From a virus: 64,000 nt of DNA. Positions 5,092 to 56,071 of the stretch are shown piece after piece. Position 1 is the first letter of the stretch; each line of letters starts with the position of its first letter. The stretch lies in the IMG/VR virus record IMGVR_UViG_3300040801_004114. The stretch is one strand, 5' to 3'. The notes under the pieces are model-generated. The model ran no database searches. It was not told the DNA's origin and was given only the letters and a program-made list of their open reading frames with translations. The position numbers and the translations under genes are program-made.

Positions 5092-5577
5092 ATGAAAATA
5101 CAAACTAAATACAAGCAATTTATAAAAGAAAACAAACTAGTTAATGATATTCTAGATAAGATAAGTGATAAAGGGATGGATAGCCTATCTGGATATGAAA
5201 AAAGAGTCTTGTATAGAAATTCTAATGATAAATTAGATGTAGATAATAGAGAAGAAGATATAAAAAACCAAATAGAAGCCGAACTAGATCTTAAAGACCT
5301 AGACCATTACACAAGAAAAGGAATAGGTGATATAGAAAAGATAGGTTTTGTTATGTTAGATTCTAAATCTGAAATTGTTTTTGACTTAGAAATAAGTTCT
5401 GGTGGTAGAGCATCTGAAATATTATACATTTATAATGATACTTACAGTAAGCTTAAATCATTATTAGATCTTACTGATGAGAAATTAAATAAATATTTAA
5501 AAGAATACCTCAACAAGAAATTCAAACAGTTTAATTTCAATAAAGTTAATATAAGAATGATGTTTAAGTCAATCTAA
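5092..5577 (+). CDS. Hypothetical protein with capsid-targeting-like N-terminus
   Basis: MKIQTKYKQFIKE N-terminus; 161 aa. Confidence 0.7.
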   Translation: MKIQTKYKQFIKENKLVNDILDKISDKGMDSLSGYEKRVLYRNSNDKLDVDNREEDIKNQIEAELDLKDLDHYTRKGIGDIEKIGFVMLDSKSEIVFDLEISSGGRASEILYIYNDTYSKLKSLLDLTDEKLNKYLKEYLNKKFKQFNFNKVNIRMMFKSI

Positions 5578-6317
5578 ACATTGAGTCTTTCCTTTATGAC
5601 ATTAACCCATTTTTCTTCTTTCTCTATAAGAATACAATTTCTGTTTATACCTTGACATACTTTTCCAGTAGTGCCACTCCCTGCACAAAAATCCCCCACA
5701 ATATCTCCCTCATTTGTATAAGTCTCTAAAAAATATTTAACCAAAGATTCTGGCTTCTGTGTAGGATGTAGAGAATTTTTTTGTTTATCCGAAGCGAATT
5801 TTAAAACAGTTCTGGGATATCTTTCTGTGCTATCATATCCTGTTAAATTATCAACACTCTCTTTGTTGTATATGTAATCTTCTCTTTGGTTACCTCTATC
5901 TACGCATTTGGCTTTACTTTCTTTAGAAGCTACTTTTCTTTTATGACCATATGTTTTCTGCGGATTGTATGTGGGTAGTTTTTTATAAAATATCATAACA
6001 TTCTCATGTGCTTTCATGGGCATCTTTTTCGCATTAAGATGTCCCGTTGCGCTTGTCTTTTCCCAAATCCATTCATACTTTAAATGTTTAAGTTGGGAAC
6101 TACCAAGGATTATATTAAAGGGAACTTGTGCTGTGCATATAACAACACCATTAGGTTTTAACAACTTCCAAGCATTTTCCCAAAATATTTCAAGGTTAAT
6201 TGGTGTGTCCCATTTAGCCCTTGTTGTGCCATATGGGAAGTCTATAAAAATAGCATCTAAAGTAACACCTAACTTAGGCATTTCTTCTTCTAATAAACCA
6301 TTTATTACTTTTATCAT
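5574..6317 (-). CDS. Orphan N6-adenine/N4-cytosine DNA methyltransferase (beta class)
   Basis: Catalytic DFPY near N-terminus, WIWEK, HPTQKP, and SAM-binding DFCAGSGTT near C-terminus. Confidence 0.92.
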   Translation of the reverse strand: MIKVINGLLEEEMPKLGVTLDAIFIDFPYGTTRAKWDTPINLEIFWENAWKLLKPNGVVICTAQVPFNIILGSSQLKHLKYEWIWEKTSATGHLNAKKMPMKAHENVMIFYKKLPTYNPQKTYGHKRKVASKESKAKCVDRGNQREDYIYNKESVDNLTGYDSTERYPRTVLKFASDKQKNSLHPTQKPESLVKYFLETYTNEGDIVGDFCAGSGTTGKVCQGINRNCILIEKEEKWVNVIKERLNV

Positions 6318-6357
6318 AAAAAATTTATTTATTATACGTCAATGTCTATATTTTGTT

Positions 6358-6365
6358 TATATTTG
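6358..6365 (+). promoter_or_regulatory. Bacteroidota sigma -7 element TAnnTTTG
   Basis: TATATTTG upstream of 6379. Confidence 0.6.
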
Positions 6366-6378
6366 CTAAAAAATAATT

Positions 6379-6777
6379 ATGAAAGAGTTAGATGTATTCT
6401 TAACAAAAGTATTATCAGATAAATATGCAGATTTAGATGATACATTCGAAAGAAGAGACTATTTCGAGTTAGAAAAAGAAAATCCAGATTTTTTAAAAGG
6501 AACGAGCGATTCGTATGGAATATCTTATTTAATAGATGTTGGTGATGTCATTCACATAAAAGTTAACCTTTATAAAGATCTAAGTGTTTCCTTAGAAACT
6601 GTTTATGATAATTCTGATATCATCAGAAAAACGATTTTTACTAATATTGAAACACATATAAACGAATTCATAAGGTTAAATGATATATTTATATCTTTGG
6701 AAAGACAGGTTGATAGCTTCATTACTGAGGATAAAAACTACATGAGAAGATTAAAGATTGATCAGATACAAGGTTAG
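6379..6777 (+). CDS. Hypothetical protein (C-terminal RxxK tail)
   Basis: 132 aa, ends RRLKIDQIQG; TATATTTG at 6358. Confidence 0.7.
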   Translation: MKELDVFLTKVLSDKYADLDDTFERRDYFELEKENPDFLKGTSDSYGISYLIDVGDVIHIKVNLYKDLSVSLETVYDNSDIIRKTIFTNIETHINEFIRLNDIFISLERQVDSFITEDKNYMRRLKIDQIQG

Positions 6778-7031
6778 TAATTATTTCTTATATTTTCTAA
6801 CCTTTTGAATTCCTCATCCCATTGTTCTAGTGTTAAACCGTTGATGCTTATGTTATTAAGCTTATCTCTACCATCACCATCCCAATAAATTGATAAATCT
6901 CTTGTGCTACCCATTTCTCCAAGAGAATGCATTTCTAACATTAGCTTTATTAACTTCTCAACTGAATCCTCTGAACATGTAAATGAAATGTTATTTTCAC
7001 AGTCCATTTTAGGTGTCTCGTATTTTTTCAT
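6774..7031 (-). CDS. Hypothetical phage protein
   Basis: 85 aa, LGEMGSTR...WDGDG motif. Confidence 0.65.
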   Translation of the reverse strand: MKKYETPKMDCENNISFTCSEDSVEKLIKLMLEMHSLGEMGSTRDLSIYWDGDGRDKLNNISINGLTLEQWDEEFKRLENIRNNY

Positions 7032-7038
7032 AAGTGTT

Positions 7039-7197
7039 TTATTTTTTTAAATTAGACTTTAATTTATGGTAATCTTCACAAGCATTTAACAACGCATCGT
7101 AATAGTAATCTATTATCCCATCATCATTCACACCACAAATATTAGCTGTCGTTCTTCTTAGTTCCTTTTTAAATTCTTTTAAGTCTTTATATATCAT
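7039..7197 (-). CDS. Small hypothetical protein (52 aa, below ORF-track cutoff)
   Basis: Manual translation MIYKDLKEFKKELRR...KSNLKK; fills the gap in the minus-strand operon. Confidence 0.55.
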   Translation of the reverse strand: MIYKDLKEFKKELRRTTANICGVNDDGIIDYYYDALLNACEDYHKLKSNLKK

Positions 7198-7226
7198 ACA
7201 CGTTATATGATAATAAAAATAAAAGT

Positions 7227-7406
7227 TTATTCATGGATCACCCAATAACCACCTGATAGTTCATATACTTTGTTTTCGTAGAATAAAAAGGGGAATTTTC
7301 TATTCAAAGTCCATTCACGCCTAAAATAAATATCACCTTCCTTACCTAATATTTTATCGCCCTCTTTGTTAATAAATTTAAATTTATTTTTTTTAAACCT
7401 TTTCAT
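7227..7406 (-). CDS. Small hypothetical protein (59 aa)
   Basis: Manual translation MKRFKKNKFKF...GGYWVIHE; TATTTTTG at 7421-7428 upstream. Confidence 0.55.
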   Translation of the reverse strand: MKRFKKNKFKFINKEGDKILGKEGDIYFRREWTLNRKFPFLFYENKVYELSGGYWVIHE

Positions 7407-7477
7407 ATTATTTTTTTTTGCAAAAATAGTAAATTAATAATAAATTAATGTATATTTGCCTTTTAAATTTAAAAATT

Positions 7478-7687
7478 ATGATGTATACTATTAAAGATAA
7501 AGATGGATTTTTTGTATCAAGAGACAATGATGACAGTAAAAAATTATTCTATGGGGATTTAGACCACAATAGGCTACTCTCTAAATCTGAAGTGGGTGTT
7601 ATCCAAGAAAGGTTCAAAGGAACTTGGAGAAGACGAGAATTTAAAGTATATGAGGTAAATCTAACTTTAACAGAAGCAAGCCTGTAA
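7478..7687 (+). CDS. Hypothetical protein
   Basis: ORF 7448..7687; start moved to ATG 7478 because 7451-7458 is a promoter-like element. Confidence 0.6.
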   Translation: MMYTIKDKDGFFVSRDNDDSKKLFYGDLDHNRLLSKSEVGVIQERFKGTWRRREFKVYEVNLTLTEASL

Positions 7688-7690
7688 TTA

Positions 7691-8821
7691 CTATACTTTT
7701 TTCTTGAAATCTTCTATGAATTCATCAACGCCTATGTTGTTATAAAATGCTTTGTATATATCAAATTCATTAAGCCAAAGAGACAATGGGGTTTTACTAT
7801 CAATGTTATTTACTCTTTTGTGTATTTCTTTACTGAAATCTAAGTATTTTTCTCTATCTTTAAAGCTTTCGAATTTGTGTCCAATTGGAAACTCATATGA
7901 AATTATTTCAACAGTTTTAGAGGGATCAAATATACAATATGTTTTCTCTTTATTTTCTAAAGCAACATATCCATCATAACCCATTTTTTTAATAGATTCA
8001 TAAACAATTTCGTTTTCATAGAATCTCCATGTGTCATCTAATTTTATTTTGGTTGAATCTAATACAAATTTTTTTCCATATTTTTTTTCTAACTTATCAT
8101 CAATTGCACTAGATTCTATTTCAGACTCTATTTTTTTAAATTCTTCTACCTCATCTTTTGAGGGTACACCCATTTTATTACCACCTCTCATTAGACTATC
8201 TAAAAAATAAAGGTAGTGTTCGGTATTTGAATATCTATCACCTTTAATTCTTCTACCAAAGGTATCAACTAATTCGGTTATCCTTGGGTCTTCATTCATT
8301 TTTGAATTAATTTCTCTATTCAAGTTATCTTGATTCAGAACAATGGCGTGTTTATCTGTTTTTCTAACAATAACAAATGTATCTCTAGCATATGATGGAT
8401 CAGGAAAAGTATCTCCTATTTCCATATCCTTTATACCATCGATAGGTTCTATAATATCATATCCTTTCATATTCATTATAAATTCATCTTTATCAACCTT
8501 AGCATTAAACCCGAAGTTATTATATGTGTACTCTATCTCACTAGGTAGTGCTTCGTATAGTTTATCTAACTCTTTTTCGTTTTCTATATCAAATATATCA
8601 CCTAGTACTTTAACAGTGTAAATGTTTGTTTGGGAATCCATAGCAGCATCCATGGATTTTTGATTTGAGTAGTTTTCTGCAAATTCTCTATTTGTAGAAA
8701 AAAAGGTAGCCTTGGGAAAGAAATTCTCAAAGATATAAGGACTCCCATGATATAATACTTTGTCTATTTTAGATTCCTTGATAAAGTTATAATAAGATGT
8801 TTGTAAATATGTGTTTTTCAT
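7691..8821 (-). CDS. ADP-ribosyltransferase-like (ART-PolyVal-like) protein with capsid-targeting-like N-terminus
   Basis: LYHGS...FFST...FAENY at N-terminus and GYDGYVALE...YCIFDP near C-terminus, split by a long insertion; N-terminus MKNTYLQTSYYNFIKE. Confidence 0.6.
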   Translation of the reverse strand: MKNTYLQTSYYNFIKESKIDKVLYHGSPYIFENFFPKATFFSTNREFAENYSNQKSMDAAMDSQTNIYTVKVLGDIFDIENEKELDKLYEALPSEIEYTYNNFGFNAKVDKDEFIMNMKGYDIIEPIDGIKDMEIGDTFPDPSYARDTFVIVRKTDKHAIVLNQDNLNREINSKMNEDPRITELVDTFGRRIKGDRYSNTEHYLYFLDSLMRGGNKMGVPSKDEVEEFKKIESEIESSAIDDKLEKKYGKKFVLDSTKIKLDDTWRFYENEIVYESIKKMGYDGYVALENKEKTYCIFDPSKTVEIISYEFPIGHKFESFKDREKYLDFSKEIHKRVNNIDSKTPLSLWLNEFDIYKAFYNNIGVDEFIEDFKKKV

Positions 8822-8824
8822 ATT

Positions 8825-8835
8825 GTATATATTAA
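8825..8835 (-). promoter_or_regulatory. Putative phage late promoter TTAATATATA(C)
   Basis: 3 nt upstream of ATG 8821. Confidence 0.6.
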
Positions 8836-8845
8836 ATATATTCCT

Positions 8846-8853
8846 TATATTTG
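8846..8853 (+). promoter_or_regulatory. Bacteroidota sigma -7 element TAnnTTTG
   Basis: TATATTTG upstream of 8869. Confidence 0.6.
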
Positions 8854-8868
8854 CCTAAAACAAAGACA

Positions 8869-9114
8869 ATGGCTTTATTATATACAAGAGCAAAAGTAAT
8901 TAGAAGAATTGAAAGGCTTGTTAAGTCTTGTCCTTTTAAGGCTAAATATATAAATGTCTCTACTGACATGACTTATTTATTGGAAGAGATAAGGCTATGT
9001 GATAATCCTAGATTTGAAATAAAAATAGAAGATGGGATTTATAAAGCTTTTTATAAGAACATACCTATTGTCAAAAGAAAAGGTAAAAGTCAAATTTACT
9101 TAACTAATTTTTAA
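8869..9114 (+). CDS. Hypothetical protein
   Basis: ORF 8851..9114; ATG at 8869 lies downstream of TATATTTG 8846-8853. Confidence 0.6.
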   Translation: MALLYTRAKVIRRIERLVKSCPFKAKYINVSTDMTYLLEEIRLCDNPRFEIKIEDGIYKAFYKNIPIVKRKGKSQIYLTNF

Positions 9115-9123
9115 AATTAAATT

Positions 9124-9546
9124 ATGCCTATATTAAATTACACAACCCAAATTAAATACGAAAAGACCATTATGGAGATTCAAAAGGTCTTAGTAGATAG
9201 AGGTGCTACAAAAATAGTTACTGATTATGATAATGGGATGCCAGTAGGTTTAACTTTTGGTATTGAAGTAGAGGGTAAAATGCTAGCCTTTTCATTACCT
9301 GCGAATTATAGTGGTGTTTTAAGAGCCATGAAAAGGGATAAAAAAGTTCCTAAGTCTAAGCTAACCGAAGAACAAGCCCTTAGAGTTTCGTGGAGAATAA
9401 TCAAAGATTGGGTTGAAGCACAAATGGCTATTGTTGAAGCTGATTTAGCGAATTTAGATGAAGTATTTTTACCATATTCTATTACTAGAAACGGCAATAG
9501 GCTTTATGATGAGGTAAAGGGATCTAATATGTTACTCGATAGTTAA
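9124..9546 (+). CDS. Hypothetical phage protein
   Basis: 140 aa; MPILNYTT...ALRVSWRIIKDWVEAQ...EVFLPY, a pattern I associate with phage proteins. Confidence 0.75.
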   Translation: MPILNYTTQIKYEKTIMEIQKVLVDRGATKIVTDYDNGMPVGLTFGIEVEGKMLAFSLPANYSGVLRAMKRDKKVPKSKLTEEQALRVSWRIIKDWVEAQMAIVEADLANLDEVFLPYSITRNGNRLYDEVKGSNMLLDS

Positions 9547-9553
9547 TATATAC
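9543..9553 (+). promoter_or_regulatory. Putative phage late promoter TTAATATATA(C)
   Basis: 3 nt upstream of ATG 9557. Confidence 0.6.
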
Positions 9554-9556
9554 TAT

Positions 9557-10033
9557 ATGAAAAAATATATTAAAACTAGCATAAAAGACTTCATAAACGA
9601 AAACGTTCAAAGGAATAACAGGGATGTCATTTTAGTTGATGAACATGGAAAAAATATAGTCTATGATAGCGGAAACTACCGAATTGCAGTTGATGATCCA
9701 AAAAGTGCTAGGTATATAACACTTTGGTATAAAGAAGATGAAAACAAATGGGTTAAAGTAGGTGTTTTAGATGCTAGTAAAACCTATAGAAAATTAGGCA
9801 AATATGATGGTGACTTTTTATCTATCAGATCAATAGAAATAGACAAAAAGCATAGAAAGTTAGGTTTGTCAACTTTGATGTATAGAGCCTTAATTGATTT
9901 TAGTGATAAAGATGTAATCGGAATATTTTCCTACCTTCCAGATAGGGTTAACAAAAGAGAAATTCCTAATATTTATTCTAAATTTGATGCTGTAACAGAC
10001 GAAGACTATCAATATATAATTTTTAAAAAGTAA
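9557..10033 (+). CDS. GNAT-family acetyltransferase with capsid-targeting-like N-terminus
   Basis: Motif A IEIDKKHRKLGLSTLMY; N-terminus MKKYIKTSIKDFINE. Confidence 0.65.
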   Translation: MKKYIKTSIKDFINENVQRNNRDVILVDEHGKNIVYDSGNYRIAVDDPKSARYITLWYKEDENKWVKVGVLDASKTYRKLGKYDGDFLSIRSIEIDKKHRKLGLSTLMYRALIDFSDKDVIGIFSYLPDRVNKREIPNIYSKFDAVTDEDYQYIIFKK

Positions 10034-10037
10034 AAAA

Positions 10038-10307
10038 ATGAGTTCTAAAAGAGTAGAAAATTATCGTGGTGATATTAAATGGGTAAATGAGGATGGTGAG
10101 CTACATAGGCTAGATGGTCCTGCTTATATATCAAGCGATGGAAAAGATAAAGAATGGTGGGTTAATGGATTCCCACATAGGTTAGATGGTCCTGCTTTGG
10201 AATGGGATTCATCAGACACCAAACAATATTATATTGAAGGTGAAAAGGTTAAGGAAGAAAATTTTCTGGAATTATCTAGAAAAAAGAAACTTAAAGATAT
10301 CCTTTAA
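10038..10307 (+). CDS. LHRxDGPA-repeat protein
   Basis: Two HRLDGPA units with W spacers; ends RKKKLKDIL. Confidence 0.8.
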   Translation: MSSKRVENYRGDIKWVNEDGELHRLDGPAYISSDGKDKEWWVNGFPHRLDGPALEWDSSDTKQYYIEGEKVKEENFLELSRKKKLKDIL

Positions 10308-10400
10308 TTTAAAACACTTACATTTTTCACAAAAACAAGATTCACATAACATACGTGGTGTTGTTTTTATTATTTTATCTTTATCTATTTTTAATTTCAT
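10272..10400 (-). CDS. Cys-rich microprotein (42 aa)
   Basis: MKLKIDKDKIIKTTPRMLCESCFCEKCKCFKLKDIFKFLFSR; ATG 3 nt after the stop of 10403..10588. Confidence 0.4.
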   Translation of the reverse strand: MKLKIDKDKIIKTTPRMLCESCFCEKCKCFKLKDIFKFLFSR

Positions 10401-10402
10401 CT

Positions 10403-10588
10403 TTAAAGTCTTTTACTCATGATTAGAACTAATAAAGATATAGGAAATCCGATAAAAATCATCAAGACTAACCAATCTTCTAAACCAGTAACATTTTCAT
10501 TAAGACAAGCACCTAATGAACATAGTAGAAAAACTATAATAAAACCAAACCAATTTAGTTCTTTGATTTTACTACGTATGTTTTTCAT
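10403..10588 (-). CDS. Small two-TM membrane protein
   Basis: 61 aa, two hydrophobic segments. Confidence 0.6.
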   Translation of the reverse strand: MKNIRSKIKELNWFGFIIVFLLCSLGACLNENVTGLEDWLVLMIFIGFPISLLVLIMSKRL

Positions 10589-10621
10589 ATTTCTTTACTG
10601 TGTTTTCTTTATTTTATTATA

Positions 10622-10876: not shown

Positions 10877-10972
10877 TTCTAATTTTATTTATAATATATA
10901 TTAAATATTGAAAACAAAAAATTAAAATATACTATAACTAATCACAATAATTATTCACATAAAAATAAATAA

Positions 10973-19618: not shown

Positions 19619-19636
19619 CTACTAAATATATAATAA

Positions 19637-19867
19637 ATGTTTGATTTTAATGAAATTATAAAAGAAGAAATTCATCCAGATTATAGAAAGTCTGCTAAAG
19701 AAATAATAGATAATGTCTATCAGTTAGATAATAGTGGTGAACTACTGACAGAATTAAAAAAATATTATTTAGAAGATAAAGGTAATATATTTTGTCTACA
19801 TTTAGACCACATAAAATCATTATTAATCGATAAAGGCATAATTGATCCTCAAAAAAATAGATTTTAA
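19637..19867 (+). CDS. Hypothetical protein
   Basis: 76 aa; TATATTTG at 19611. Confidence 0.65.
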   Translation: MFDFNEIIKEEIHPDYRKSAKEIIDNVYQLDNSGELLTELKKYYLEDKGNIFCLHLDHIKSLLIDKGIIDPQKNRF

Positions 19868-21301: not shown

Positions 21302-21311
21302 TTAATATATA
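21302..21311 (+). promoter_or_regulatory. Putative phage late promoter TTAATATATA
   Basis: Upstream of 21329. Confidence 0.55.
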
Positions 21312-21328: not shown

Positions 21329-21631
21329 ATGATATCCAGATTCAATAATTTTATAAAAGAGCAGAATTCTTTTAACCAAGAAATAAAGATAACAGTTGAA
21401 GATTTTGTTGAATTAAATAGTGCTATAAAAAGAGAAATTGATGAAGATTTCCCATTCATAAAAGATTATCTTCCTAATGGTAATAAAGAGGAAGCTAGAA
21501 TGTATCTAAAACCACTTGATGTAGATACTAATATATTAGAAATAAATACAGTACAATGTAGATTTATAGGCTCTATAATAGATATAGATGACTGTGATAA
21601 AAGAACTACATTAATAATAAAAAACAGATAA
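21329..21631 (+). CDS. Hypothetical protein with capsid-targeting-like N-terminus
   Basis: MISRFNNFIKE; late-type motif at 21302-21311. Confidence 0.7.
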   Translation: MISRFNNFIKEQNSFNQEIKITVEDFVELNSAIKREIDEDFPFIKDYLPNGNKEEARMYLKPLDVDTNILEINTVQCRFIGSIIDIDDCDKRTTLIIKNR

Positions 21632-22161
21632 TGGAATATATAAAAAAATTTGAAAGCTTTTCTAATACACTTAATCCATTTGACATGGATGATATATACA
21701 ACTATGTTGAATTTAACCATCCTCTTTATTGTATATTGAGTAAAAGTAGATCAGCAAAATTACTTATGATGTCACCAAAGAAGTACTTTGAGATAATATC
21801 CAAAAACTTTAACATGAGTTATGAAGATTCTATAAACTCTGGTGCGGTATCTAAAGACCTTTATATGAAATATGCAGAAGATATGAAAAAAGGGGATAAA
21901 TTCCCAGTTCCATATTATAGAGAAGGAACTTCATTACAAGAAGGTAGACATAGGGTATTAGCTTGTATGGAATTAGGAATTGAAGAAATTCCTGTCATAG
22001 AGTTTTTTGAATTAGCATATGATGAGGTAAAAGAAATAGCATATGATTTAAAAAATAAAACAGATGCTGAAATTAAAAAATATCTTTTATCTAAAGGGTT
22101 CGATAATTTCACAGATCTAGATAAGAGAGAACTTTCAAATGTTTTCAAATATAAATTCTAA
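21631..22161 (+). CDS. ParB/Sulfiredoxin-like domain protein
   Basis: YAEDMKKGDKFPVP...QEGRHRVLACMELGIEEIPV; N-terminus MEYIKKFESF. Confidence 0.6.
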   Translation: MEYIKKFESFSNTLNPFDMDDIYNYVEFNHPLYCILSKSRSAKLLMMSPKKYFEIISKNFNMSYEDSINSGAVSKDLYMKYAEDMKKGDKFPVPYYREGTSLQEGRHRVLACMELGIEEIPVIEFFELAYDEVKEIAYDLKNKTDAEIKKYLLSKGFDNFTDLDKRELSNVFKYKF

Positions 22162-42665: not shown

Positions 42666-42676
42666 TTAATATATAC
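42666..42676 (+). promoter_or_regulatory. Putative phage late promoter TTAATATATA(C)
   Basis: 3 nt upstream of ATG 42680. Confidence 0.6.
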
Positions 42677-42679: not shown

Positions 42680-43378
42680 ATGAAAAAATTTAATGACTTT
42701 CTAACAGAAGATGTTGACGAAAACAATGATAAAATAAAGGTTCTTATGCTTAATTGCACACTTAAGGCAAGTGGAGAATCTAATACAGAAGCACTCCTTA
42801 AAAGGGTTGAGGAAATATACAATGAGCATGATAAAGAAGTTGATGTTGAGATTGTTAGAGTAGCTGAATACAAAATGGACTTTGGTAACAGTGTCGATAA
42901 GTTATCTGATGAAGATCAATTTCCAGAAATATACGAAAAAATGCTAAACTCTGATATAATACTGATCGGTAGTGCTATTTGGTTTGGTGAGAGAACATCA
43001 ATAACACAGATAATTTTCGAAAGAATGATTGGTGCTTATGGGGATACAAATGATCTTGGTCAACCTAAATTGTATGGAAAAGTTGGGGGTGTTGTAGTCA
43101 CTGGAAATGAAGATGGTGTACATGGTGTCGCATCTTTAACATTATTTAATTTAGCACACTTAGGTTGTACTATACCACCAAATGCGGATTGTTATTGGGT
43201 AGGTGATGCAGGTCCTGGTAAATCTTATATTGAAGCTGGTGGTGAAAAACATTTATACACGAATAAAACAGCATATTTCTTAGTTAATAACACTTTACAC
43301 GCTGCTGAAATGATAAAAAATAATCCTTACCAAAGTAACCTAACCGAGTTAGAAGAAATGGCAAAAAAATATTCTTAA
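42680..43378 (+). CDS. Flavodoxin-family NAD(P)H-dependent FMN reductase with capsid-targeting-like leader
   Basis: LNCTLK....SNT, SDIILIGSAIWFG, YGKVGGVVVTGNEDG, IPPNADCYW; leader MKKFNDFLTE. Confidence 0.85.
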   Translation: MKKFNDFLTEDVDENNDKIKVLMLNCTLKASGESNTEALLKRVEEIYNEHDKEVDVEIVRVAEYKMDFGNSVDKLSDEDQFPEIYEKMLNSDIILIGSAIWFGERTSITQIIFERMIGAYGDTNDLGQPKLYGKVGGVVVTGNEDGVHGVASLTLFNLAHLGCTIPPNADCYWVGDAGPGKSYIEAGGEKHLYTNKTAYFLVNNTLHAAEMIKNNPYQSNLTELEEMAKKYS

Positions 43379-43379: not shown

Positions 43380-43829
43380 TTACTTTTTAGTTATTATTGA
43401 AGTTGGTCCGAAATTGTTATATTCATAGTCTTTTGGGAGATACTTTATTAGAAATCTTCTATTAATTCTAAGTCTTTGATTCTCTTCTTTAGGACTAAAA
43501 TCTTCTTTTTCTTTTTCTTTCTTAGAAGCTATGTGTTCTATTATTATGGTTTCTGGTTCAAACATCTCTATGAAATCTACTGTTATGTCAGTTACTGTTT
43601 TTATAACATTGATAGCATCAGGATTTTCTAACATAGTAAAAGAATTCCTTTTATTTTTTATACCATACTCTCTTGTCCAACCATCTTTTGTTGGTGAGAA
43701 TTCAACATAAAAATTAACATTGTCTTTATTAGTAAATTCGTATTTTAATTTAGATGTATAAGGATCATCTATTGGTTTGAAATTGTAAGATTCTGTTATG
43801 AACTCTATGAATGGTATAATTGTTTTCAT
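43380..43829 (-). CDS. Hypothetical protein with capsid-targeting-like N-terminus
   Basis: MKTIIPFIEFITE; late-type motif at 43833. Confidence 0.7.
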   Translation of the reverse strand: MKTIIPFIEFITESYNFKPIDDPYTSKLKYEFTNKDNVNFYVEFSPTKDGWTREYGIKNKRNSFTMLENPDAINVIKTVTDITVDFIEMFEPETIIIEHIASKKEKEKEDFSPKEENQRLRINRRFLIKYLPKDYEYNNFGPTSIITKK

Positions 43830-43849
43830 AGAGTATATATAAAATATTG

Positions 43850-44960: not shown

Positions 44961-45239
44961 TTACCATTTTTGTGTAGCTAATATCTTGCCTTTTTTTGAT
45001 ATTAAATAATTTTCGTTACAATCTTCTCCTGAGCATCCACCACCATAAGATGCATATGCCCATCCATTTTCAAGTAACACACCACTTACTGGATGATGTA
45101 GCTCACTACCATCGGGATATACTGGACTTCCACTATACACATCTTTAATTTTTTGACCTTTTATATACTTGTTAAATGTCTCAGTATATGTCATACCTAA
45201 GTTTTCGTTAAACTTTTCGAAGTTTTTTATTTTTCCCAT
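44961..45239 (-). CDS. Hypothetical protein with capsid-targeting-like N-terminus
   Basis: MGKIKNFEKFNE; GGGCSGEDC. Confidence 0.7.
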   Translation of the reverse strand: MGKIKNFEKFNENLGMTYTETFNKYIKGQKIKDVYSGSPVYPDGSELHHPVSGVLLENGWAYASYGGGCSGEDCNENYLISKKGKILATQKW

Positions 45240-45275
45240 AGTATATATATTAATATGTAAATATAATTTTTTTAT

Positions 45276-45287
45276 TTAATATATAAG
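45276..45287 (+). promoter_or_regulatory. Putative phage late promoter TTAATATATA (divergent partner at 45241-45252)
   Basis: 2 nt upstream of ATG 45290. Confidence 0.6.
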
Positions 45288-45289
45288 TT

Positions 45290-45808
45290 ATGAAATACTT
45301 AAAAAAATATAATAAATTCTTTGAAGATGGCGATGGTGGTGGGAGTACTGGTTCTGGGGATGCTACGGCTAATGCATCCACTTCTGGTATGGGTGCAGTA
45401 GTATCTGCTCAACCAGGTGCGTTACCAGGTGATACTGGTACGTCAGGATCAGGTGATATTGGTTTTACTTTCAAGAAGAAAAAAAGAAAGAAAGGCGATC
45501 CTTCAGAAGTGTCTGACATGAGAGACTTAGAAGATTCTAGTGATGAGATAACTAAATTAGATGAAAACTATTCTGAGCAGGATGTTTTTAATGAAGTGTT
45601 AGACCATTTGAAGTCCAGAAATTTATCACCTAATATGATTAAACAAATAATGGGTAGTTATACAGATATGATTATAGAAATGTATAATGAGGGAATAAAT
45701 ACAACTCAAATAATAAAAAAAGTTATATCTCTATTAGGACATGAGAGTGAAAAAACATTTTTAGGGATACTTCCACCAACTACACCTAAACCTATATCCT
45801 TTCTATGA
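45290..45808 (+). CDS. Gly/Ser-rich protein with capsid-targeting-like N-terminus (internal head protein candidate)
   Basis: MKYLKKYNKFFE, low-complexity GDGGGSTGSG..., KKKKRKK patch. Confidence 0.75.
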   Translation: MKYLKKYNKFFEDGDGGGSTGSGDATANASTSGMGAVVSAQPGALPGDTGTSGSGDIGFTFKKKKRKKGDPSEVSDMRDLEDSSDEITKLDENYSEQDVFNEVLDHLKSRNLSPNMIKQIMGSYTDMIIEMYNEGINTTQIIKKVISLLGHESEKTFLGILPPTTPKPISFL

Positions 45809-47030: not shown

Positions 47031-47984
47031 TTATTCACTATAATTAAAAACTTTTAATCTATTTAACCACCCTCTTCCGTGTTTTGAGAATGTTTTTGAT
47101 GCTTTATACCTTTTTTCTCTTTCTTTTTTTATGTTATCAAACAGTTGCTTAGAATCAACTTCATTTACGAAATCCATAAATTTATCATCATATGGATTTT
47201 CGTCTTTTCTAATAGGAATCCCAGAAGAATTGAAAGCCTTTCTTAAAACTTTTCTCATCCCATTTATACCTTGGTTAACACATCCATCGTATATTATATT
47301 AGCCACTGACTGGTTATTTATCTTTCCTAAATTTTGATTCTCCCAATATTTTTTTTTGTAAATATCTAAAGCAGTTTCATAACTTAAATTGATCATATCT
47401 TCTTTAGTAGGAAGTTTACTCATGTAATCCATAAGAACAGGTGCTGATATACCATGGTTAGTACCAATAAACCTCTTTCCATAAGGTGTTGATACGAAAT
47501 TACCCCTGTCTTTTCTATCATCTGAATATCCTTTTTCAACACTCTTTACTAAACTTTGAGCATCTAAAAAAGATGCTTTAGTAACTGGTGCTTTAGTAAC
47601 TGTTAAATCTTCTAGGTTTTTAATAGCCTCTAGTGTCTCAGGTGGTATCTCACTGCTTATGACATCATTATCAACTTTGTCATTTGGGAAATAGTAATCA
47701 AATGGTGCGAATAATAGAAACACAGCAGATGCTGACAATAAAATTCTCTTTTTATTTTTATTCTTCATATCTCCTAGTTTACTTAGGAGCTTATAGAAGT
47801 ATTTCTTAATTTGTTTTTTAGACATAGTTTTTAATAGTTTTTTGAGTCTAGATGTTTTTTTCATATCCCAGTGGTATGTATTATCACCTATCCACTCCCC
47901 TTTGTCTTCTAATATAGAATTATCAAAATTAAATATTTGATTAAATTCTTTTTCTAATAAAAAATCATTATATTTGCTAATCAT
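47031..47984 (-). CDS. GH108-like muramidase with peptidoglycan-binding C-terminus and capsid-targeting-like leader
   Basis: EKGYSDD..DRGN...TNHGIS, YKKKYW, D..VNQG, GWLNRL; leader MISKYNDFLLE. Confidence 0.85.
   Translation of the reverse strand: MISKYNDFLLEKEFNQIFNFDNSILEDKGEWIGDNTYHWDMKKTSRLKKLLKTMSKKQIKKYFYKLLSKLGDMKNKNKKRILLSASAVFLLFAPFDYYFPNDKVDNDVISSEIPPETLEAIKNLEDLTVTKAPVTKASFLDAQSLVKSVEKGYSDDRKDRGNFVSTPYGKRFIGTNHGISAPVLMDYMSKLPTKEDMINLSYETALDIYKKKYWENQNLGKINNQSVANIIYDGCVNQGINGMRKVLRKAFNSSGIPIRKDENPYDDKFMDFVNEVDSKQLFDNIKKEREKRYKASKTFSKHGRGWLNRLKVFNYSE
47969..47976 (+). promoter_or_regulatory. Bacteroidota sigma -7 element inside the divergent GH108 coding start
   Basis: TATATTTG upstream of 47999. 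Confidence 0.5.
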
Positions 47985-47987: not shown

Positions 47988-47998
47988 GTATATATTAA
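47988..47998 (-). promoter_or_regulatory. Putative phage late promoter TTAATATATA(C)
   Basis: 3 nt upstream of ATG 47984. Confidence 0.6.
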
Positions 47999-48392: not shown

Positions 48393-49124
48393 ATGGGAAG
48401 AAGATTATTATTCTTAGGTGATATACACGAAAATTTTAACTTAGTAAAGTATTACGTCAAATCTTATGATATAACCAACGCTGACATCATACAGGTTGGT
48501 GACTTCGGTGTTGGTTTTAAAAAATTTGACAGGGATATGGAAGAATTAAAAAGAGTTAATGATGCCATAGCTGTTAATGATGTAACTCTATATGCAATAA
48601 GGGGGAATCATGATTATAAGCCTTATTTTGATAATGATCCTTTTAATTTGTCTAACATAAAACTATTAAAAGATTACTCGGTTCTAAACCTATCTAACCA
48701 TAAAATATTACTTATTGGTGGAGCTATAAGTGTAGATAGAGTTGAAAGAATTGAGGGTTATAGATCAGGCAAGTATAAATATAGGCATTGGTGGAGTGAT
48801 GAGTCTTTTGAGTTGGATACAGATAAATTAAAAGATGTAAAGGATATTGATATTGTAGTCACACATTCAGCACCTGAGTTTTGCCATCCTACGAATACAG
48901 AGGGTTTTGGTTTTTTTGTGGATAGCAAGGCTAAAAATGATGAATATTTAAAAACTGACCTTTTAACTGAGAGAAAGCTAATAACAGATGCTTTTGATAT
49001 TATTCAGGAGAACAATAATATAACACATCACTATTATGGACACTTCCATACTAGTGCTTCTAGAGAAATTAATGGTGTTAAGCACCGACTTTTAAATATA
49101 GGAGAATTATGGGAAGAGAGATAA
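48393..49124 (+). CDS. Calcineurin-like metallophosphoesterase
   Basis: GDIH, QVGDFG, RGNHD, GGAISVDR, VVTHSAP, YYGHFH. Confidence 0.92.
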   Translation: MGRRLLFLGDIHENFNLVKYYVKSYDITNADIIQVGDFGVGFKKFDRDMEELKRVNDAIAVNDVTLYAIRGNHDYKPYFDNDPFNLSNIKLLKDYSVLNLSNHKILLIGGAISVDRVERIEGYRSGKYKYRHWWSDESFELDTDKLKDVKDIDIVVTHSAPEFCHPTNTEGFGFFVDSKAKNDEYLKTDLLTERKLITDAFDIIQENNNITHHYYGHFHTSASREINGVKHRLLNIGELWEER

Positions 49125-49711
49125 ATAATAAAATAAGAGTTTCATGTGCTAGTTTTGCATCTATAAAGCTTGGTGATAAATACTTATTGTGCCTAAATAA
49201 AAATAAATTAGAAAACGGTATTGAAGTATTCACACCTTTTGGTGGTGCATTAGAATATAAGCAAAGTGCTAAAGATTTTTTAGATAATTTGGGAGTAGAG
49301 TATTTAAGGGAAACCACTGACCTTAGACTAATGATGGATAGAGATAACTTAGACCTTTTTGAAATATGGTTTTCTAAAAGAATAGACCGAGAGGTAAGTG
49401 TTGCTAGAGAATTAGTAGAAGAAATGGTTTATGAAGAAGGTATATTAGAATCTTTGAATCCTAGTGATTATACATCAGAACATATAAAATCAGAAAAGCT
49501 AGAAACCGAAATGGATAACTTGACATTGTTTATGTATTTTGAAATTTTTAATGTTAAATTTAACATACCAAAGGCTAGAGAGATTTTTATGAGTCTAGAT
49601 AATAATGACAAAATAGGACTTTTTACTGAGGAAGAAATATTAAAAGGAGTGTCTGAAAATGGTATCAAAATAGGAACTAACTCTAAATCTATATTACAAT
49701 CAGATGACTAG
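49109..49711 (+). CDS. Stand-alone SMODS-associated-type NUDIX (Sa_NUDIX-like) protein
   Basis: IRVSCASFASIKLGDKYLL, PFGG, DLRL, WF...DRE...RELVEE (NUDIX-box remnant); no TM segment. Confidence 0.7.
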   Translation: MGREINNKIRVSCASFASIKLGDKYLLCLNKNKLENGIEVFTPFGGALEYKQSAKDFLDNLGVEYLRETTDLRLMMDRDNLDLFEIWFSKRIDREVSVARELVEEMVYEEGILESLNPSDYTSEHIKSEKLETEMDNLTLFMYFEIFNVKFNIPKAREIFMSLDNNDKIGLFTEEEILKGVSENGIKIGTNSKSILQSDD

Positions 49712-52800: not shown

Positions 52801-53619
52801 AATAAAATAAGAAAACTTAGATGAAGTACTATCATTATTTGGTTTTATGGTGAATGCGCCTTTGTCATTAGTTGAGTTGTTTGTACAAGTTATTGAAATT
52901 CTTATCCATCCATTTTTTAATTTAAAAGACATAAAATCATCTGGGGTGTCTGTGCCTATACTACTAAGGTTGCTAGTAGAAAAATTATAATTAACTTCAA
53001 AATTTAAAGCAGTTCCATTAGAAAGGTCTAACGCCAATGTTATGTTTTCAGAATCGCCTTTTTTCACGAATATAGATGCTGTGTAGCTCGTATCATCAGC
53101 AGGTATAATTATGTCCTGTGATAATGTATTAGTATTACTACCAGTTACTTTTGTAGCTAAATTTGTTTCATATATATCTACCACATCAACAGTCTGTGGA
53201 TCTAGAATAGCTCCATTATTATTCCAGTTAATTGTGTCATAGTTTTCACTTGATAATATTAAATTAGACTTGGATTCTTCAGAAAGTATAACAGGTGTAG
53301 AGGATATACTATAGTCTATTCTAGGTTCGTTGTTGCCAACAACTTCGACTATTCCATTTTTATTTACTTTAGTGGCACTAGTGCTTCTAGAAAAAGTTAG
53401 ATCATTATCAGTGTTATTAGGGAATATCGAATATATTTTAGAGGTTTTATACGCATTAGGCACACACAAAAAATCATAAACGTTACCACTAAGGGCTAAT
53501 TCGTCTAATATGCTAGTATAAGATGATAACTTACCTTCAAATGTTCCAGAATCTTGTATTACTCTTTGATAGAAATCTTTTATAAATTCGCTTTTATAAA
53601 TAACTGGTCCAACTGACAT
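49891..53619 (-). CDS. Large fibre/adhesin-like protein: spike-fibre-like N-domain, BspA/DUF285-like LRR array, C-terminal FN3
   Basis: FSRSTSAT...NNEPRIDY...SNLILSSE...IGAQLEE...SYIP; about 12 x 26-aa IPxGxFDNN repeats; C-terminal APNEVNNLSVSNITST...YEVW...YTIKIR. Confidence 0.8.
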   Translation of the reverse strand: MSVGPVIYKSEFIKDFYQRVIQDSGTFEGKLSSYTSILDELALSGNVYDFLCVPNAYKTSKIYSIFPNNTDNDLTFSRSTSATKVNKNGIVEVVGNNEPRIDYSISSTPVILSEESKSNLILSSENYDTINWNNNGAILDPQTVDVVDIYETNLATKVTGSNTNTLSQDIIIPADDTSYTASIFVKKGDSENITLALDLSNGTALNFEVNYNFSTSNLSSIGTDTPDDFMSFKLKNGWIRISITCTNNSTNDKGAFTIKPNNDSTSSKFSYFIGAQLEEEDLTSYIPSSIGNRGEDIIETDYNSNLTVDIGEDQMISNFSSTQLPKGRILSIKGSNEPISNRESNFILLVDTTSTQNPSGTQFRLNGAEGEYDINAYKDNVLIQSYDNLQGDETITLPESGIFEIEVVPKEVNGFNRLRFATDSNNKKGRVLEVINWGYVQWSSMESMFSFCRDLTDISKAGSIKSKVIGEQSGKCFSNLPLLKSVEATDFSRMFFRCDLTTIPENLFSLCTEMTDVSSCFGSNNIDSIGSDLFKNCRKLVNVNGVFSSNSITTIPENLFSNNTLIESMVTTFAFNDINDVPEGFLDNNTLITNITDIFYANEISSIPSGLLSNLTNLDFAFAAFADNNITSIPSGFFDNNTLLTDIGSFFAANNITSIPPGILDNNVNLTSVNRTFGFNNINEIPSGIFDNNILLTDVSGVFQLNNISTIPSGIFDNLPQIINASYIFGNNNISIIPSGIFDNNTNLIRLEYAFSDNNISEIPVGIFINNGNLSNLSNCFSINGTINSVPSDTFNDLNLQEGSTSGLSEVFDQTLIPKEDYTNLLIELDINYTNNTEQIYFGAFNNKYDFPGVNPRRNLIENKQWVITDGGLDDNNFKELYVNNVFLEDFDSVNKAFNVFTNTYRTSGNPSANPNLREEDIKSISTTPTPTATYPNLCKVVIEANENLISPSWSSFILPSDTGMFHKYEDTQNKPSIDYIIDDFGIIENLPGRDLSQQGRLMFVKLEGVTSAGSQSLGWHTSPPRVMEFPNLVTINVINNGLFNNWRNTLDYLYIPELEVGDPTYDNYFNNWGIRANGGMKKIIYINPQWETANGGNLHESLQLVLSNEPNTDIRYVTNKDAPNEVNNLSVSNITSTNVQLNFTEPQVVTNVNDFYEVWINDGTNNLIQNYFPLGEVSTTGENIDFRLSFGSDGSIEASIANGVSTGLVPNTDYTIKIRTVDFLYNKSTFSNEVSFRTLAS
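51230..52130 (-). repeat. Imperfect coding tandem repeat, 78-bp (26-aa) period, about 12 units
   Basis: ccactt at 51713 and 51791; atcaaatata at 51391 and 51469 (both 78 apart). Confidence 0.85.
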
Positions 53620-53672
53620 ACATCTATAATATATTTTATGTATATATTCAATCGATAACTTTACGTAAACAA

Positions 53673-53700
53673 AAAAAAGCTCGGAAAACCGAGCTTTTTT
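53673..53700. terminator. Intrinsic terminator (symmetric)
   Basis: AAAAAAGCTCGG-AAAA-CCGAGCTTTTTT. Confidence 0.85.
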
Positions 53701-53719
53701 AACTTAAATCTATATATTT

Positions 53720-54157
53720 TTAAGATTCTTTTGGAGCATCTTCTACATTAACTACCTCAATATCAAAAGATAAGTCTTTACCTGCTAGTGGGTGGTTAGC
53801 ATCAACAACAACGTGATCTTCGTTAATTTCTGTAACTACCACATTTATATTCTTACCATCATTAGACGGTGCTTGTAATTGTTGCCCAATTTGAACCTCA
53901 CCAGGAAGTTGCTCTTTTTTAACTTTAGCAATTAAGTCTTCTCTGACATCACCATAACCATCTTTAGATTCAACAGTTACTTGCACTTTGTCACCTACTT
54001 TCTTACCAAGAATCGCACTCTCAAAACCAGGAATTATTTGTCCTGTTCCGATTTGGAATTTAAGCGGTTCTCTTTCAAAAGAGCTATCAAATTGCTTTTC
54101 GTCATCTTTAGTCTTTCCAGTATAATGTACCTCGACTATTTTACCATTTTCTATCAT
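53720..54157 (-). CDS. FKBP-type peptidyl-prolyl isomerase (SlyD/FkpB-like)
   Basis: VEVHYTG, FDSS, GQIIPGFE, GYG, DANHPLAGKDLSF. Confidence 0.93.
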   Translation of the reverse strand: MIENGKIVEVHYTGKTKDDEKQFDSSFEREPLKFQIGTGQIIPGFESAILGKKVGDKVQVTVESKDGYGDVREDLIAKVKKEQLPGEVQIGQQLQAPSNDGKNINVVVTEINEDHVVVDANHPLAGKDLSFDIEVVNVEDAPKES

Positions 54158-54214
54158 AATTTAAATTGTTTTTTACTTATATAGAAAATAAACGTTTTGT
54201 TTAGTAAAAATCAG

Positions 54215-55591
54215 CTATTTACCAAATAATTTTGTATTAGTCTTGCTAGAAGCCTTATCATGCTCAGGATTAAATTGTGTGTTAAAGAAATTACTATGAT
54301 CATTTATAACTTTAACATTAGAGTCCATACTGGCATAAGGACCTAATTTACCAGACCTATAAACACCACCTATCATATCACCATTTAAATATCCTTCTAC
54401 AAAATAGCATTCTTCAAGTGATGATGATTCTACATTACAATTTAAAACTTTACATTTATAAGCATCGCTTTGAAACATTTTACTTCTGGTCATCTGTGAA
54501 TTTCTTATCTCACTACCAACAATATAACAATCAAAGAAAATACCCTCTAATGTACAATTTACTAAATCTACTGTTTTTATGGTTGAGGTTGTTTTAACAT
54601 TAGCATCTATAACTTCTAAAGTTTGCGTTGTTGTCACATAGTTTAAAATACATTCATCTATATCTTCACAAGAAGTTATGAAATTGTATATCTTATCATA
54701 TATATTCCCATAGTATGAATTAACTATATCGTAGTTGCTTCTTTGATCTATTTGTATCTGTATATTAGGAAGCTCTACTATGAAATTATCATAATTAGAT
54801 AGATTTTTATAAGATGATATATTATCTTCCAAATACTCTTCCAATTTTATTTTATCTTCATTATTGAAAGGTGTATTTATACTATCTCTAACATTAATAA
54901 TAAACCTATCCATGAAATATATTATTTGTCCAAGGTTTTTTTCATAGTCCATACCACCTATATACCTGAATTCAACACGCTGATCTTCTTTAGCATTGTT
55001 TATATTTAAAAAGTTTATACCAAAATACTTATCTTTGGGAAACCTCATATTGTTTCTAACAACAGATAAAGGTATATTAAAAAAATCATATTCTTTAAAG
55101 GGGATTATACTTTTAACTGACTTAGCATAAACATTGCCCTTTCTAGATGGATAAGCTCTGTATATTTCTTCTTCATCAGTATTTAATATTAATTTCAAAA
55201 TATTTATATCATTCAAGTCAGTGTCATCATCAAATGATAAGTTAAAGTGTATAGAACATTTTTCATTAGTATAACCGTAATTCTGTATAAATTTTATGAT
55301 GTTTATTAAGAAATATTTAGCATCATAATATCCCAATGGTCCTGTTACTAGTTCTACCATACTAGAACCACCAGAAAGGTCAGGTTCTATCTTAAAATTA
55401 TTGCTATCTGGTTTAAAATCAGAGTGGTATTGCTTAAATCCCCAAACTCTCACGGGTGCTAACTCGTCATTTAACATTTCTAAAGTTTTATAATAAGACA
55501 CGTCCTTCATATAGAATTCGAATTCCATACCTATTTTAGAATTCTTTAGTTTATGTGTTTGGTTTAAAAATTTATCGGAGTATTTTTCCAT
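54215..55591 (-). CDS. Putative amidoligase (Amidoligase_2/COOH-NH2 ligase-like) with beta-repeat C-terminus
   Basis: IGMEFEF, EPDLSGG..MVELVTGP, CSIHFN, KYFGINF, VEFRYIGG. Confidence 0.75.
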   Translation of the reverse strand: MEKYSDKFLNQTHKLKNSKIGMEFEFYMKDVSYYKTLEMLNDELAPVRVWGFKQYHSDFKPDSNNFKIEPDLSGGSSMVELVTGPLGYYDAKYFLINIIKFIQNYGYTNEKCSIHFNLSFDDDTDLNDINILKLILNTDEEEIYRAYPSRKGNVYAKSVKSIIPFKEYDFFNIPLSVVRNNMRFPKDKYFGINFLNINNAKEDQRVEFRYIGGMDYEKNLGQIIYFMDRFIINVRDSINTPFNNEDKIKLEEYLEDNISSYKNLSNYDNFIVELPNIQIQIDQRSNYDIVNSYYGNIYDKIYNFITSCEDIDECILNYVTTTQTLEVIDANVKTTSTIKTVDLVNCTLEGIFFDCYIVGSEIRNSQMTRSKMFQSDAYKCKVLNCNVESSSLEECYFVEGYLNGDMIGGVYRSGKLGPYASMDSNVKVINDHSNFFNTQFNPEHDKASSKTNTKLFGK

Positions 55592-55594
55592 ATT

Positions 55595-55605
55595 CTATAT
55601 ATTAA
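55595..55605 (-). promoter_or_regulatory. Putative phage late promoter TTAATATATA(G)
   Basis: 3 nt upstream of ATG 55591. Confidence 0.55.
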
Positions 55606-55642
55606 AATGGTTATGTATTAATTAATTTTAACGAGATAATGT

Positions 55643-56071
55643 TTATATAAGATCTTTTATCATAACAGAGTTATCACTTAAGTTAGCTATTTTTGTATAT
55701 CCTAAAGATCTATACCAATTATCTAAAACAAACCCATCTAATTGCTTTTCACCTTTATCAGAAACTAGTATTGAATATTGGCATTGATTCATAACTGCCC
55801 ATCTTTCGTATTCTGAATAAAGCTCTTTGCCTTTACCCATCCCTCTATAATTTATATTTATATTTATATTTTCTAGTATAGATATAGGATATAGTTCTTG
55901 ACCATATTCTTCTTCTAATATTTCAAGAACTAGTTGTGAGTCACCATATTTATTAAATATATCTGCTATACCATAAATGTCATGTGCAATAGCTCCCTTT
56001 ATTTTACCAAATTTGCTATCTTGTAATAGTTCATCACTGTTATACTGTTCAAATAGTTTTAAATGTTTCAT
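55643..56071 (-). CDS. GNAT-family acetyltransferase with capsid-targeting-like N-terminus
   Basis: INYRGMGKGKELY motif A, L.NWYRSLGY motif B; MKHLKLFEQY. Confidence 0.75.
   Translation of the reverse strand: MKHLKLFEQYNSDELLQDSKFGKIKGAIAHDIYGIADIFNKYGDSQLVLEILEEEYGQELYPISILENINININYRGMGKGKELYSEYERWAVMNQCQYSILVSDKGEKQLDGFVLDNWYRSLGYTKIANLSDNSVMIKDLI

Follow-up and report, generated by a model that had tools for sequence, protein, structure and literature searches.

A 64,000-nucleotide stretch of viral DNA (IMG/VR virus record IMGVR_UViG_3300040801_004114; the whole stretch is referred to below as the window) contains eleven genes whose products begin with short, recurring N-terminal peptides. 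Our analysis indicates that these leaders are probably capsid-targeting propeptides of the type known from bacteriophage T4, which would be cleaved by the prohead protease. The initial annotation of the window had proposed that the eleven genes follow the tagging logic of T4, and that proposal is supported in part. The leaders resemble the T4 capsid-targeting sequence (CTS), match the maturation site of the T4 capsid protein gp23 and a repeat in the scaffold of related phages, are grafted onto complete protein domains, and belong to genes with late-type promoters; four of them lack the core motif that had been described. Because the tags match the load-and-cut signal of T4 as well as the scaffold repeat of the clade, they most likely mark enzymes for packing into the capsid. 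Delivery of the tagged proteins into the host would be less likely than their targeting and cleavage. The eleven start codons and N-terminal peptides are exactly as first annotated. A literature search found no publication describing these leaders.

The window has 28% G+C and short, tightly packed genes, many of which are preceded, ~20 nt before the ATG, by TAnnTTTG, the housekeeping promoter box of Bacteroidota. Its RNA ligase is 67% identical to that of LR745206.1, an uncultured phage of 634,780 bp. The nearest matches to a protein of its tail block are in other uncultured phages, of 636-735 kb, and more distant matches are in jumbo phages of Tenacibaculum, Chryseobacterium, Flavobacterium, and Prevotella; this homologue search with the tail-block protein found no cultured member of the clade. 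On the basis of the relatives of its RNA ligase and tail protein, together with the promoter boxes, we assign the window to an uncultured megaphage of Bacteroidota, of whose genome it represents one piece. Megablast of the window against the phage collection, an exact look-up of one of its proteins, and a search of IMG/VR with a 40-mer from it gave no match. Two relatives, LR745206 (whole) and LR756501 (first 400 kb), were used as stand-ins for the remaining genome. T4 (NC_000866) served as the positive control and Tenacibaculum phage PTm1 (AP019524) as the control for composition. Genes were called simply as longest open reading frames (ORFs), which gave 115 genes in the window, 956 in LR745206, 551 in LR756501, and 315 in PTm1, and 271 ORFs in T4.

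The initial annotation had placed a single core, [FY]xxF[IL]xE, on all eleven genes. Six genes have exactly this core (5092, 8821(-), 21329, 42680, 43829(-), and 47984(-); genes are named by the position of their start codon, with (-) for the minus strand), and a seventh, 9557, comes near to it, with Ile in place of the first aromatic residue. The other four (21631, 45239(-), 45290, and 56071(-)) do not fit the core and have a different leader in common, M[KR][YH][LI]Kx[FY]. The eleven leaders are therefore of two classes, seven in class 1 and four in class 2. The leader ends in the site of the T4 protease gp21, [L/I]-x-E, in seven of the eleven genes, all of class 1.

The occurrence of these leaders is real and far beyond chance. 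Six of the 115 window genes have the strict motif starting within the first 12 residues, where 0.14 would be expected from N-terminal composition, and the N-terminal rate in the window is 39 times the internal rate (p = 1.6e-8). The same motif was found at 19 of the 956 N-termini of LR745206 (1.3 expected; 13.6-fold enrichment, p = 1e-15). A relaxed motif has nine matches in the whole window proteome, six of which are N-terminal. We also scored N-termini with a position matrix of 10 columns, built from 25 leaders of the window and LR745206 with no T4 data. At least 6 bits were reached by 10 of the 115 window genes (0.13 expected) and by 40 of the 956 LR745206 genes (1.5 expected), and the leader Glu of the genes scored in this way is mostly at residue 10-13. 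Class 1 leaders head at least 27-40 genes of LR745206. The class 2 leader is at the start of four window genes and 49 LR745206 genes (0.07 expected in LR745206). LR756501 has 35 class 1 leaders in 551 genes (1.3 expected), and class 2 is almost absent from it.

Leaders of both classes were also detected in IMG/VR. A scan with back-translated MIKKYxxFIKE gave 22 matches, 21 of which start long ORFs. Back-translated MK[YH]LKKFNE had matches in 118 DNA stretches, and 83 of the 85 matches in the loci that were examined are at ORF starts. The contigs with leaders have 23-42% G+C and are up to ~500 kb long, and several of them have both classes. Metagenomes from lakes and microbial mats also contain related DNA. 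In PTm1, with 29.7% G+C and a Bacteroidota host, two of 315 N-termini scored above 10 bits and there were no class 2 leaders. The pattern is missing from this control, so composition and host translation signals are not its source.

The leaders behave as portable protein modules. The eleven genes had been described as unrelated, and we found no mutual kinship among them once the first 18 residues were removed. When the 96 tagged proteins of the window and LR745206 were stripped in the same way, they fell into 91 unrelated BLAST clusters. The 13 phage homologues of the FMN reductase encoded by 42680 (53-82% identity) all begin with MKKFxDF[IL]xE and a variable acidic linker; in cellular homologues (Methanosarcina, Methanofollis, Cytophagaceae, and others) the leader is absent and the first beta strand forms the N-terminus. 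In the AlphaFold model of the window protein, the fold begins at residue 19 with a predicted local distance difference test (pLDDT) score of at least 95. Residues 1-18, which comprise the leader MKKFNDFLTE and an acidic linker, are ahead of the fold and outside it, with pLDDT of 47-66. The Sa_NUDIX gene of the window (49109..49711, plus strand) is untagged, and its homologue in LR745206 has MILDFLSFINE exactly ahead of the aligned region. This occurrence of one domain with and without the tag indicates that the tag is a portable module. Leaders are kept in orthologues, as seen for the GH108 gene 47984(-), whose LR745206 orthologue has 47% identity, and for 45290, whose orthologue there begins with MRYLKPYKKFIE. 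Only two of the eleven tagged window genes have a homologue in LR745206, and the cargo set therefore turns over quickly. At the conserved Phe, Ile, and Glu positions, synonymous codons are used in genome-wide ratios. Selection acts on the leaders at the level of the protein.

In T4, a protein fused to the CTS, MKTYQEFIAE, stays in the head (PMC8442874, PMC5694885), and the CTS is cut once by gp21 (the same two sources; Mullaney & Black 1996 as cited there). The core of this sequence, YQEFIAE, matches our strict motif. When the clade matrix was applied to the 271 T4 N-termini, the top three were gp61.1, IPIII, and IPII, with IPII and IPIII at 11.4 bits. The strict motif has ten matches in the T4 proteome, including the N-termini of these three proteins and the maturation site of gp23, FGSFLTE65/AEIGG (the slash marks the cut), which ends a propeptide of 65 residues (PMC5694885). 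Because the gp23 site is matched too, the motif captures both the CTS and a preferred cleavage site of gp21. The gene for gp61.1 (NC_000866 18966-19130, minus strand) is beside the primase gene and encodes a hypothetical protein of 54 aa that begins with MKTFKEFIKE and scores 19.4 bits. It may be an unrecognised CTS-bearing protein.

The head genes of LR745206 are of the T4 type. Its portal matches PF07230 (E = 4e-58), and its capsid protein matches the gp23-type family PF07068 (E = 7e-26) and has a propeptide that opens like that of T4 (KKWSPVLE vs NKWKPLLE in T4). Between the portal and capsid genes, at 198546-200669, is a gene whose 707-residue product matches Peptidase_S77 over its first 150 residues (E = 1e-4) and resembles T4 gp21 in BLAST (9e-4) across the GExxHP motif. 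No HK97-type protease was found in LR745206. The 707-residue protein has more than 4,000 metagenomic homologues with 68-98% identity, some of which have a precomputed match to PF03420. A gp21-family protease is also encoded by LR756501 and by PTm1, and the S77 match of the PTm1 protein is over the Pfam cut-off.

The protease domain of the LR745206 protein is followed by 11 tandem repeats of 14 residues, YSEY[IL]AE/N[LV]DKNI, and then by a very acidic stretch. The corresponding protein of LR756501 (73913-76336) has 14 tandem copies of the same YSEY[IL]AE repeat. The layout of this scaffold repeat is that of the leaders, with aromatic residues at P7 and P4, Ile or Leu at P3, and Glu at P1, and it is almost the core of the T4 CTS. 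Relaxed-motif matches number 79 in the proteome of LR745206 (11 in the protease-scaffold protein, 22 N-terminal) and 71 in that of LR756501 (14 and 33, respectively). The matrix penalises Tyr at P4, and the link to the scaffold emerged with the relaxed motif only; high-scoring internal matches to the matrix are not concentrated in recognisable head proteins. The scaffold repeats of PTm1 are of a different type, [FY]TKxLSE. One gene of PTm1 (47243-47686) has a clear class 1 leader, MENTQTKYLNFLKE, at 22.7 bits. With this leader and its S77 protease, PTm1, which is cultured, is a possible laboratory model for leader cleavage; its sequence record carries no annotation from virion proteomics.

A late-type motif had been reported upstream of each of the eleven genes or of the gene directly before it, and this is correct in every case: nine have their own ATATATA, and 5092 and 21631 directly follow a gene that has one. 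The distance from the end of ATATATA to the ATG is 4 nt in eight of the eleven and 17 nt in one. A genome-wide motif scan and its correlation with the late motif, which the initial annotation had suggested as a check, revealed both enrichment and association with the late motif in the window and in LR745206. Nine of the 25 window genes with a late motif are tagged (36%), compared to none of the 20 with only the host-type TAnnTTTG and three of the 65 with neither. In LR745206, 42 of 207 late-motif genes and two of 86 host-promoter genes are tagged (p = 2e-5). The outcome that the annotation had named as counting against it, a motif equally common in host-promoter genes, is not what these counts show.

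In LR745206, ATATATA also precedes the homologues of T4 portal, sheath, terminase, gp4, gp25, and fibre genes, and it precedes few replication genes. The same phage encodes a gp55-like late sigma factor (PHROG 234, E = 2e-7). The late promoter motif of T4 is TATAAATA, and we infer that the TAATATATA motif is its counterpart, a late promoter. The spacing between ATATATA and ATG in the window and LR745206 is bimodal, with 4-5 nt in 107 genes and 17-25 nt in ~100 genes. The shorter spacing implies transcripts that start at the ATG or next to it, and such late mRNAs are probably leaderless. Bacteroidota are a phylum that does not use Shine-Dalgarno pairing.

The cargo that had been listed for the tagged genes is firm in part. 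Gene 42680 (42680..43378, plus strand, 232 aa, class 1; ATATATA at 42669-42675, 4 nt from the ATG) belongs to the NADPH-dependent FMN reductase/flavodoxin family (E = 6e-13). Gene 47984(-) (47031..47984, minus strand, 317 aa, class 1; leader MISKYNDFLLE, 24.0 bits; ATATATA at 47989-47995) encodes a GH108 muramidase domain at residues 147-239 (E = 6.5e-15). The ART-PolyVal-like assignment of 8821(-) (7691..8821, minus strand, 376 aa, class 1) is a fair lead, with a Pfam match below the cut-off (E = 5e-4) and an Atlas feature score of 0.90; its leader is MKNTYLQTSYYNFIKE (8774-8821; 22.4 bits), and ATATATA is at 8826-8832, 4 nt from the ATG. The matches behind the two GNAT assignments and the ParB-like assignment are weak. 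The GNAT genes are 9557 (9557..10033, plus strand, 158 aa, near class 1; leader MKKYIKTSIKDFINE, 7.8 bits; ATATATA at 9546-9552, 4 nt from the ATG) and 56071(-) (55643..56071, minus strand, 142 aa, class 2; MKHLKLFEQY; ATATATA at 56076-56082), the latter within a block of tail and baseplate genes. The ParB-like gene is 21631 (21631..22161, plus strand, 176 aa), with the class-2-like start MEYIKKFESF; its start abuts the end of 21329-21631.

The remaining tagged genes gave little or no indication of family. Searches of PHROGs and Pfam found no match for 21329, 43380-43829, 44961-45239, 45290, the body of 5092, or several genes of the tail block. Gene 21329 (21329..21631, plus strand, 100 aa, class 1) has the leader MISRFNNFIKE (21.1 bits) and ATATATA at 21305-21311, 17 nt from the ATG. 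Gene 43829(-) (43380..43829, minus strand, 149 aa, class 1) has the leader MKTIIPFIEFITE (19.7 bits) and ATATATA at 43834-43840, 4 nt from the ATG. Genes 45239(-) (44961..45239, minus strand, 92 aa, class-2-like; MGKIKNFEKFNE; ATATATA at 45244-45250) and 45290 (45290..45808, plus strand, 172 aa, class 2; MKYLKKYNKFFE; ATATATA at 45279-45285) are divergent. Within the 50-bp spacer between them, 45240-45289, a TAATATATA motif faces each of the two class 2 genes at a distance of 4 nt from its ATG, which makes the spacer a compact, divergent pair of putative late promoters. Gene 5092 (5092..5577, plus strand, 161 aa, class 1) has the leader MKIQTKYKQFIKE (5092-5130; 26.4 bits), directly followed by a match to DUF6576. 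It has no motif of its own; the upstream neighbour, 4544-5086, has TTTTAATATATAC ~20 nt upstream. A DUF6576 match directly after the leader Glu is also present in the tagged protein of LR745206 133378-134001, and both matches begin at profile position 14 of 47. One further candidate, which had not been annotated as tagged, is 19637..19867 (plus strand, 76 aa), with MFDFNEIIKEE at 10.5 bits; both ATATATA (19626-19632) and the host-type box TATATTTG are upstream of it.

The tagged proteins of LR745206 include a fusion of a 2H/Acb1-like phosphoesterase with an RNase T-type exonuclease, a Sa_NUDIX protein, a DHH phosphoesterase, a T4-type RNA ligase 1, and a Toprim-like protein. The domains of the fusion protein (448257-449573) and of the Sa_NUDIX protein (340824-341435) are linked to degradation of cyclic-nucleotide defence signals. 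If the tag means packaging, these two would be pre-loaded enzymes directed against cyclic-oligonucleotide-based anti-phage signalling systems (anti-CBASS type). Polyvalent proteins packaged into phage heads typically carry such domains (Iyer et al. 2017, PMC5512222). The types of cargo would suit pre-loaded counter-defence.

Three further loci of the relatives were noted. LR756501 21458-26533 encodes a protein of 1,691 aa with seven tandem repeats of ~58 residues, in each of which the leader motif recurs as FVKY[IL]IE, and the product may be a polyprotein that is cut by the head protease. Directly after the capsid gene of LR745206, at 202508-202897, is the gene for a small protein with an NFACT-R RNA-binding domain, which has the leader-like start MIKKYKLFKE and a late motif 4 nt upstream. 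A weak Gp23 match next to a tagged gene at ~222 kb of LR745206, which had pointed to a gp24-like vertex protein with a leader, was spurious. With respect to leaders of the kind found in radical-SAM systems for ribosomally synthesized and post-translationally modified peptides (RiPPs), LR745206 has one generic radical-SAM gene (Radical_SAM plus Fer4_12), no SPASM domain, and ~90 dispersed tagged genes, which does not fit such a system.

Read most simply, the data suggest a leader that mimics the scaffold, assembles together with it, and is cleaved where the scaffold is cleaved. Transcription from the TAATATATA promoters would be driven by a gp55-like sigma factor at a late stage of infection, giving mRNAs that are probably leaderless where the promoter is 4-5 nt from the ATG. 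At the N-terminus of the product there would be an amphipathic stretch, 9-16 residues long, with hydrophobic-x-Glu at its end. This stretch would mimic the YSEY[IL]AE repeat of the scaffold that is fused to the gp21-like serine protease, and through this imitation it would dock the tagged protein into the core of the prohead during closure of the gp23-like shell. The protease would then cut after the leader Glu, as in the scaffold repeats and the capsid propeptide. The mature enzyme would stay in the head until the next infection, when it would exit together with the DNA. All of these steps, from docking and cleavage of the tagged proteins to their retention in the virion and their injection, are predicted from the sequences of these genomes.

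Several observations weigh against this scheme. Head genes are absent from the contig of 65,573 bp to which the window belongs; the protease and scaffold were therefore seen in relatives only, at roughly 45-70% protein identity, and the S77 assignment of the LR745206 protease falls below the Pfam cut-off. Class 2 leaders end in F-N-E, I-F-E, F-x-E, or F-F-E, which fit the protease site loosely, and hydrophobic-x-E is absent from 21631. In LR745206, a late motif within 60 nt is missing for about half of the tagged genes, some of which may be inside operons. The tagged proteins are acidic on average, unlike the basic internal proteins of T4. Finally, ~9% of LR745206 genes would be cargo, far above any characterised phage.

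Alternatively, the tag might be an address or recognition label for a partner other than the prohead core, with the likeness to a protease site being secondary. It could be read by a chaperone or a modifying enzyme, by a degradation system that controls the timing of late proteins, or by a compartment of the infected cell. In favour of this, the tagged share of LR745206 is unusually high for virion cargo, the tagged proteins are acidic, and two distinct leader classes coexist in the same genomes. However, the scaffold part of the head protease itself contains 11-14 copies of the motif, which also matches both the T4 CTS and the gp23 site, and tagged and structural genes have the same type of promoter. 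We therefore consider a label for another partner to be unlikely. A role of the leader in processing or assembly without delivery, on auxiliary core or scaffold components or on zymogens that are activated by the cut and then degraded or left behind, has a precedent in the T4 core proteins gp22, gp67, and gp68, which are cut at such sites and expelled (PMC5694885). The N-terminus of the T4 scaffold protein gp22, MLKEQLIAE, is CTS-like, and the leaders are followed by acidic segments that resemble the tails of scaffold proteins. Set against this, the cargo consists of folded enzymes with complete domains and a single N-terminal site, and enzymes of the counter-defence type, if made late, would be most useful when carried into the next cell, as T4 Alt is. 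We give this explanation still less weight.

The pattern could also, in principle, arise from AT-rich composition, or from a constraint that leaderless late mRNAs place on their first codons, rather than from a protein signal. In 107 genes the ATATATA is 4-5 nt before the ATG, which puts the first codons in the initially transcribed and initiation region, and 28% G+C favours K, N, I, F, Y, and E. But synonymous usage at the conserved residues is the same as in the genome overall, the distance between the ATG and the motif is not constant (with E at residue 10-18), and at many tagged genes the promoter is 17-25 nt away or there is none. In addition, six occurrences were observed where 0.14 were expected, AT-rich PTm1 is without the pattern, and the same peptide is found inside the scaffold protein. 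This explanation is largely refuted and appears very improbable.

Compared to characterised systems, the leaders would be a large-scale version of the T4 CTS and not a separate kind of system. In both cases, unrelated proteins have a leader of 10-16 residues in which aromatic-x-x-F-[IL]-x-E ends at about residue 10-13, and the clade relatives resemble T4 in their portal, gp21-like protease, and capsid protein, in a putative late promoter that is AT-rich, and in a gp55-like sigma factor. In T4 the tagged proteins are few, small, and basic, whereas dozens of proteins are tagged here, mostly acidic and many of them enzymes. The clade also differs from T4 in having two leader classes and a protease fused to a scaffold of tandem motif copies. 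The T4 CTS has been defined by experiment, whereas the role of the clade leaders is predicted from sequence.

Other systems are similar in some respects. The giant phages phiKZ, 201phi2-1, and SPN3US have a gp21-related protease that cuts after Glu, process many internal head proteins, and have propeptides that are thought to target proteins to the prohead (PMC5694885). Their proteases (gp175/gp245) cut after S/A/G-x-E, with a small residue at P3 and not an aliphatic or aromatic one as in the clade leaders, and their propeptides are mostly 80-160 residues long and have no short tag in common. Polyvalent proteins and effectors fused to MuF or portal proteins (PMC5512222) have comparable payloads, including ART-PolyVal, 2H phosphoesterase, GNAT, and nuclease domains, and are predicted to be packed and injected. 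Those domains are on one giant polypeptide or are fused to a structural head domain, whereas here they are separate enzymes with a small tag that is predicted to be removable. By analogy only, the cargo-loading peptides of encapsulins are also short terminal peptides that suffice to load unrelated enzymes into a shell of the HK97 fold. These are usually C-terminal, bind the shell protein directly, and are not cleaved, and the system involves neither DNA nor delivery.

In the broadest form of the T4-type reading, phages of this clade would load about a tenth of their proteome (~90 unrelated proteins) into the capsid by means of two interchangeable 10-residue leaders that mimic the scaffold, and would deliver a counter-defence kit together with the DNA. 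The kit would include Acb1-like and exonuclease domains, Sa_NUDIX, DHH, ART, acetyltransferases, RNA ligase, a flavoprotein, and a muramidase. We put this forward tentatively, as a possibility with somewhat more against it than for it. If it is true, the sequence of any such phage would directly reveal the proteins that it injects. If the tags work as in T4, the set of proteins brought into a cell is predictable from sequence and far larger and more enzymatic than that of T4. Enzymes that degrade signals or modify the host would then be in place ahead of all phage gene expression, a point of relevance to how huge phages evade abortive infection and cyclic-nucleotide defences. The match between leader and scaffold repeat suggests that a CTS is read through imitation of the scaffold, and the leaders could serve as small transferable tags with which to load large capsids with foreign proteins. 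With the thousands of homologues of the protease-scaffold protein and both leader classes on many IMG/VR contigs, the phenomenon is widespread.

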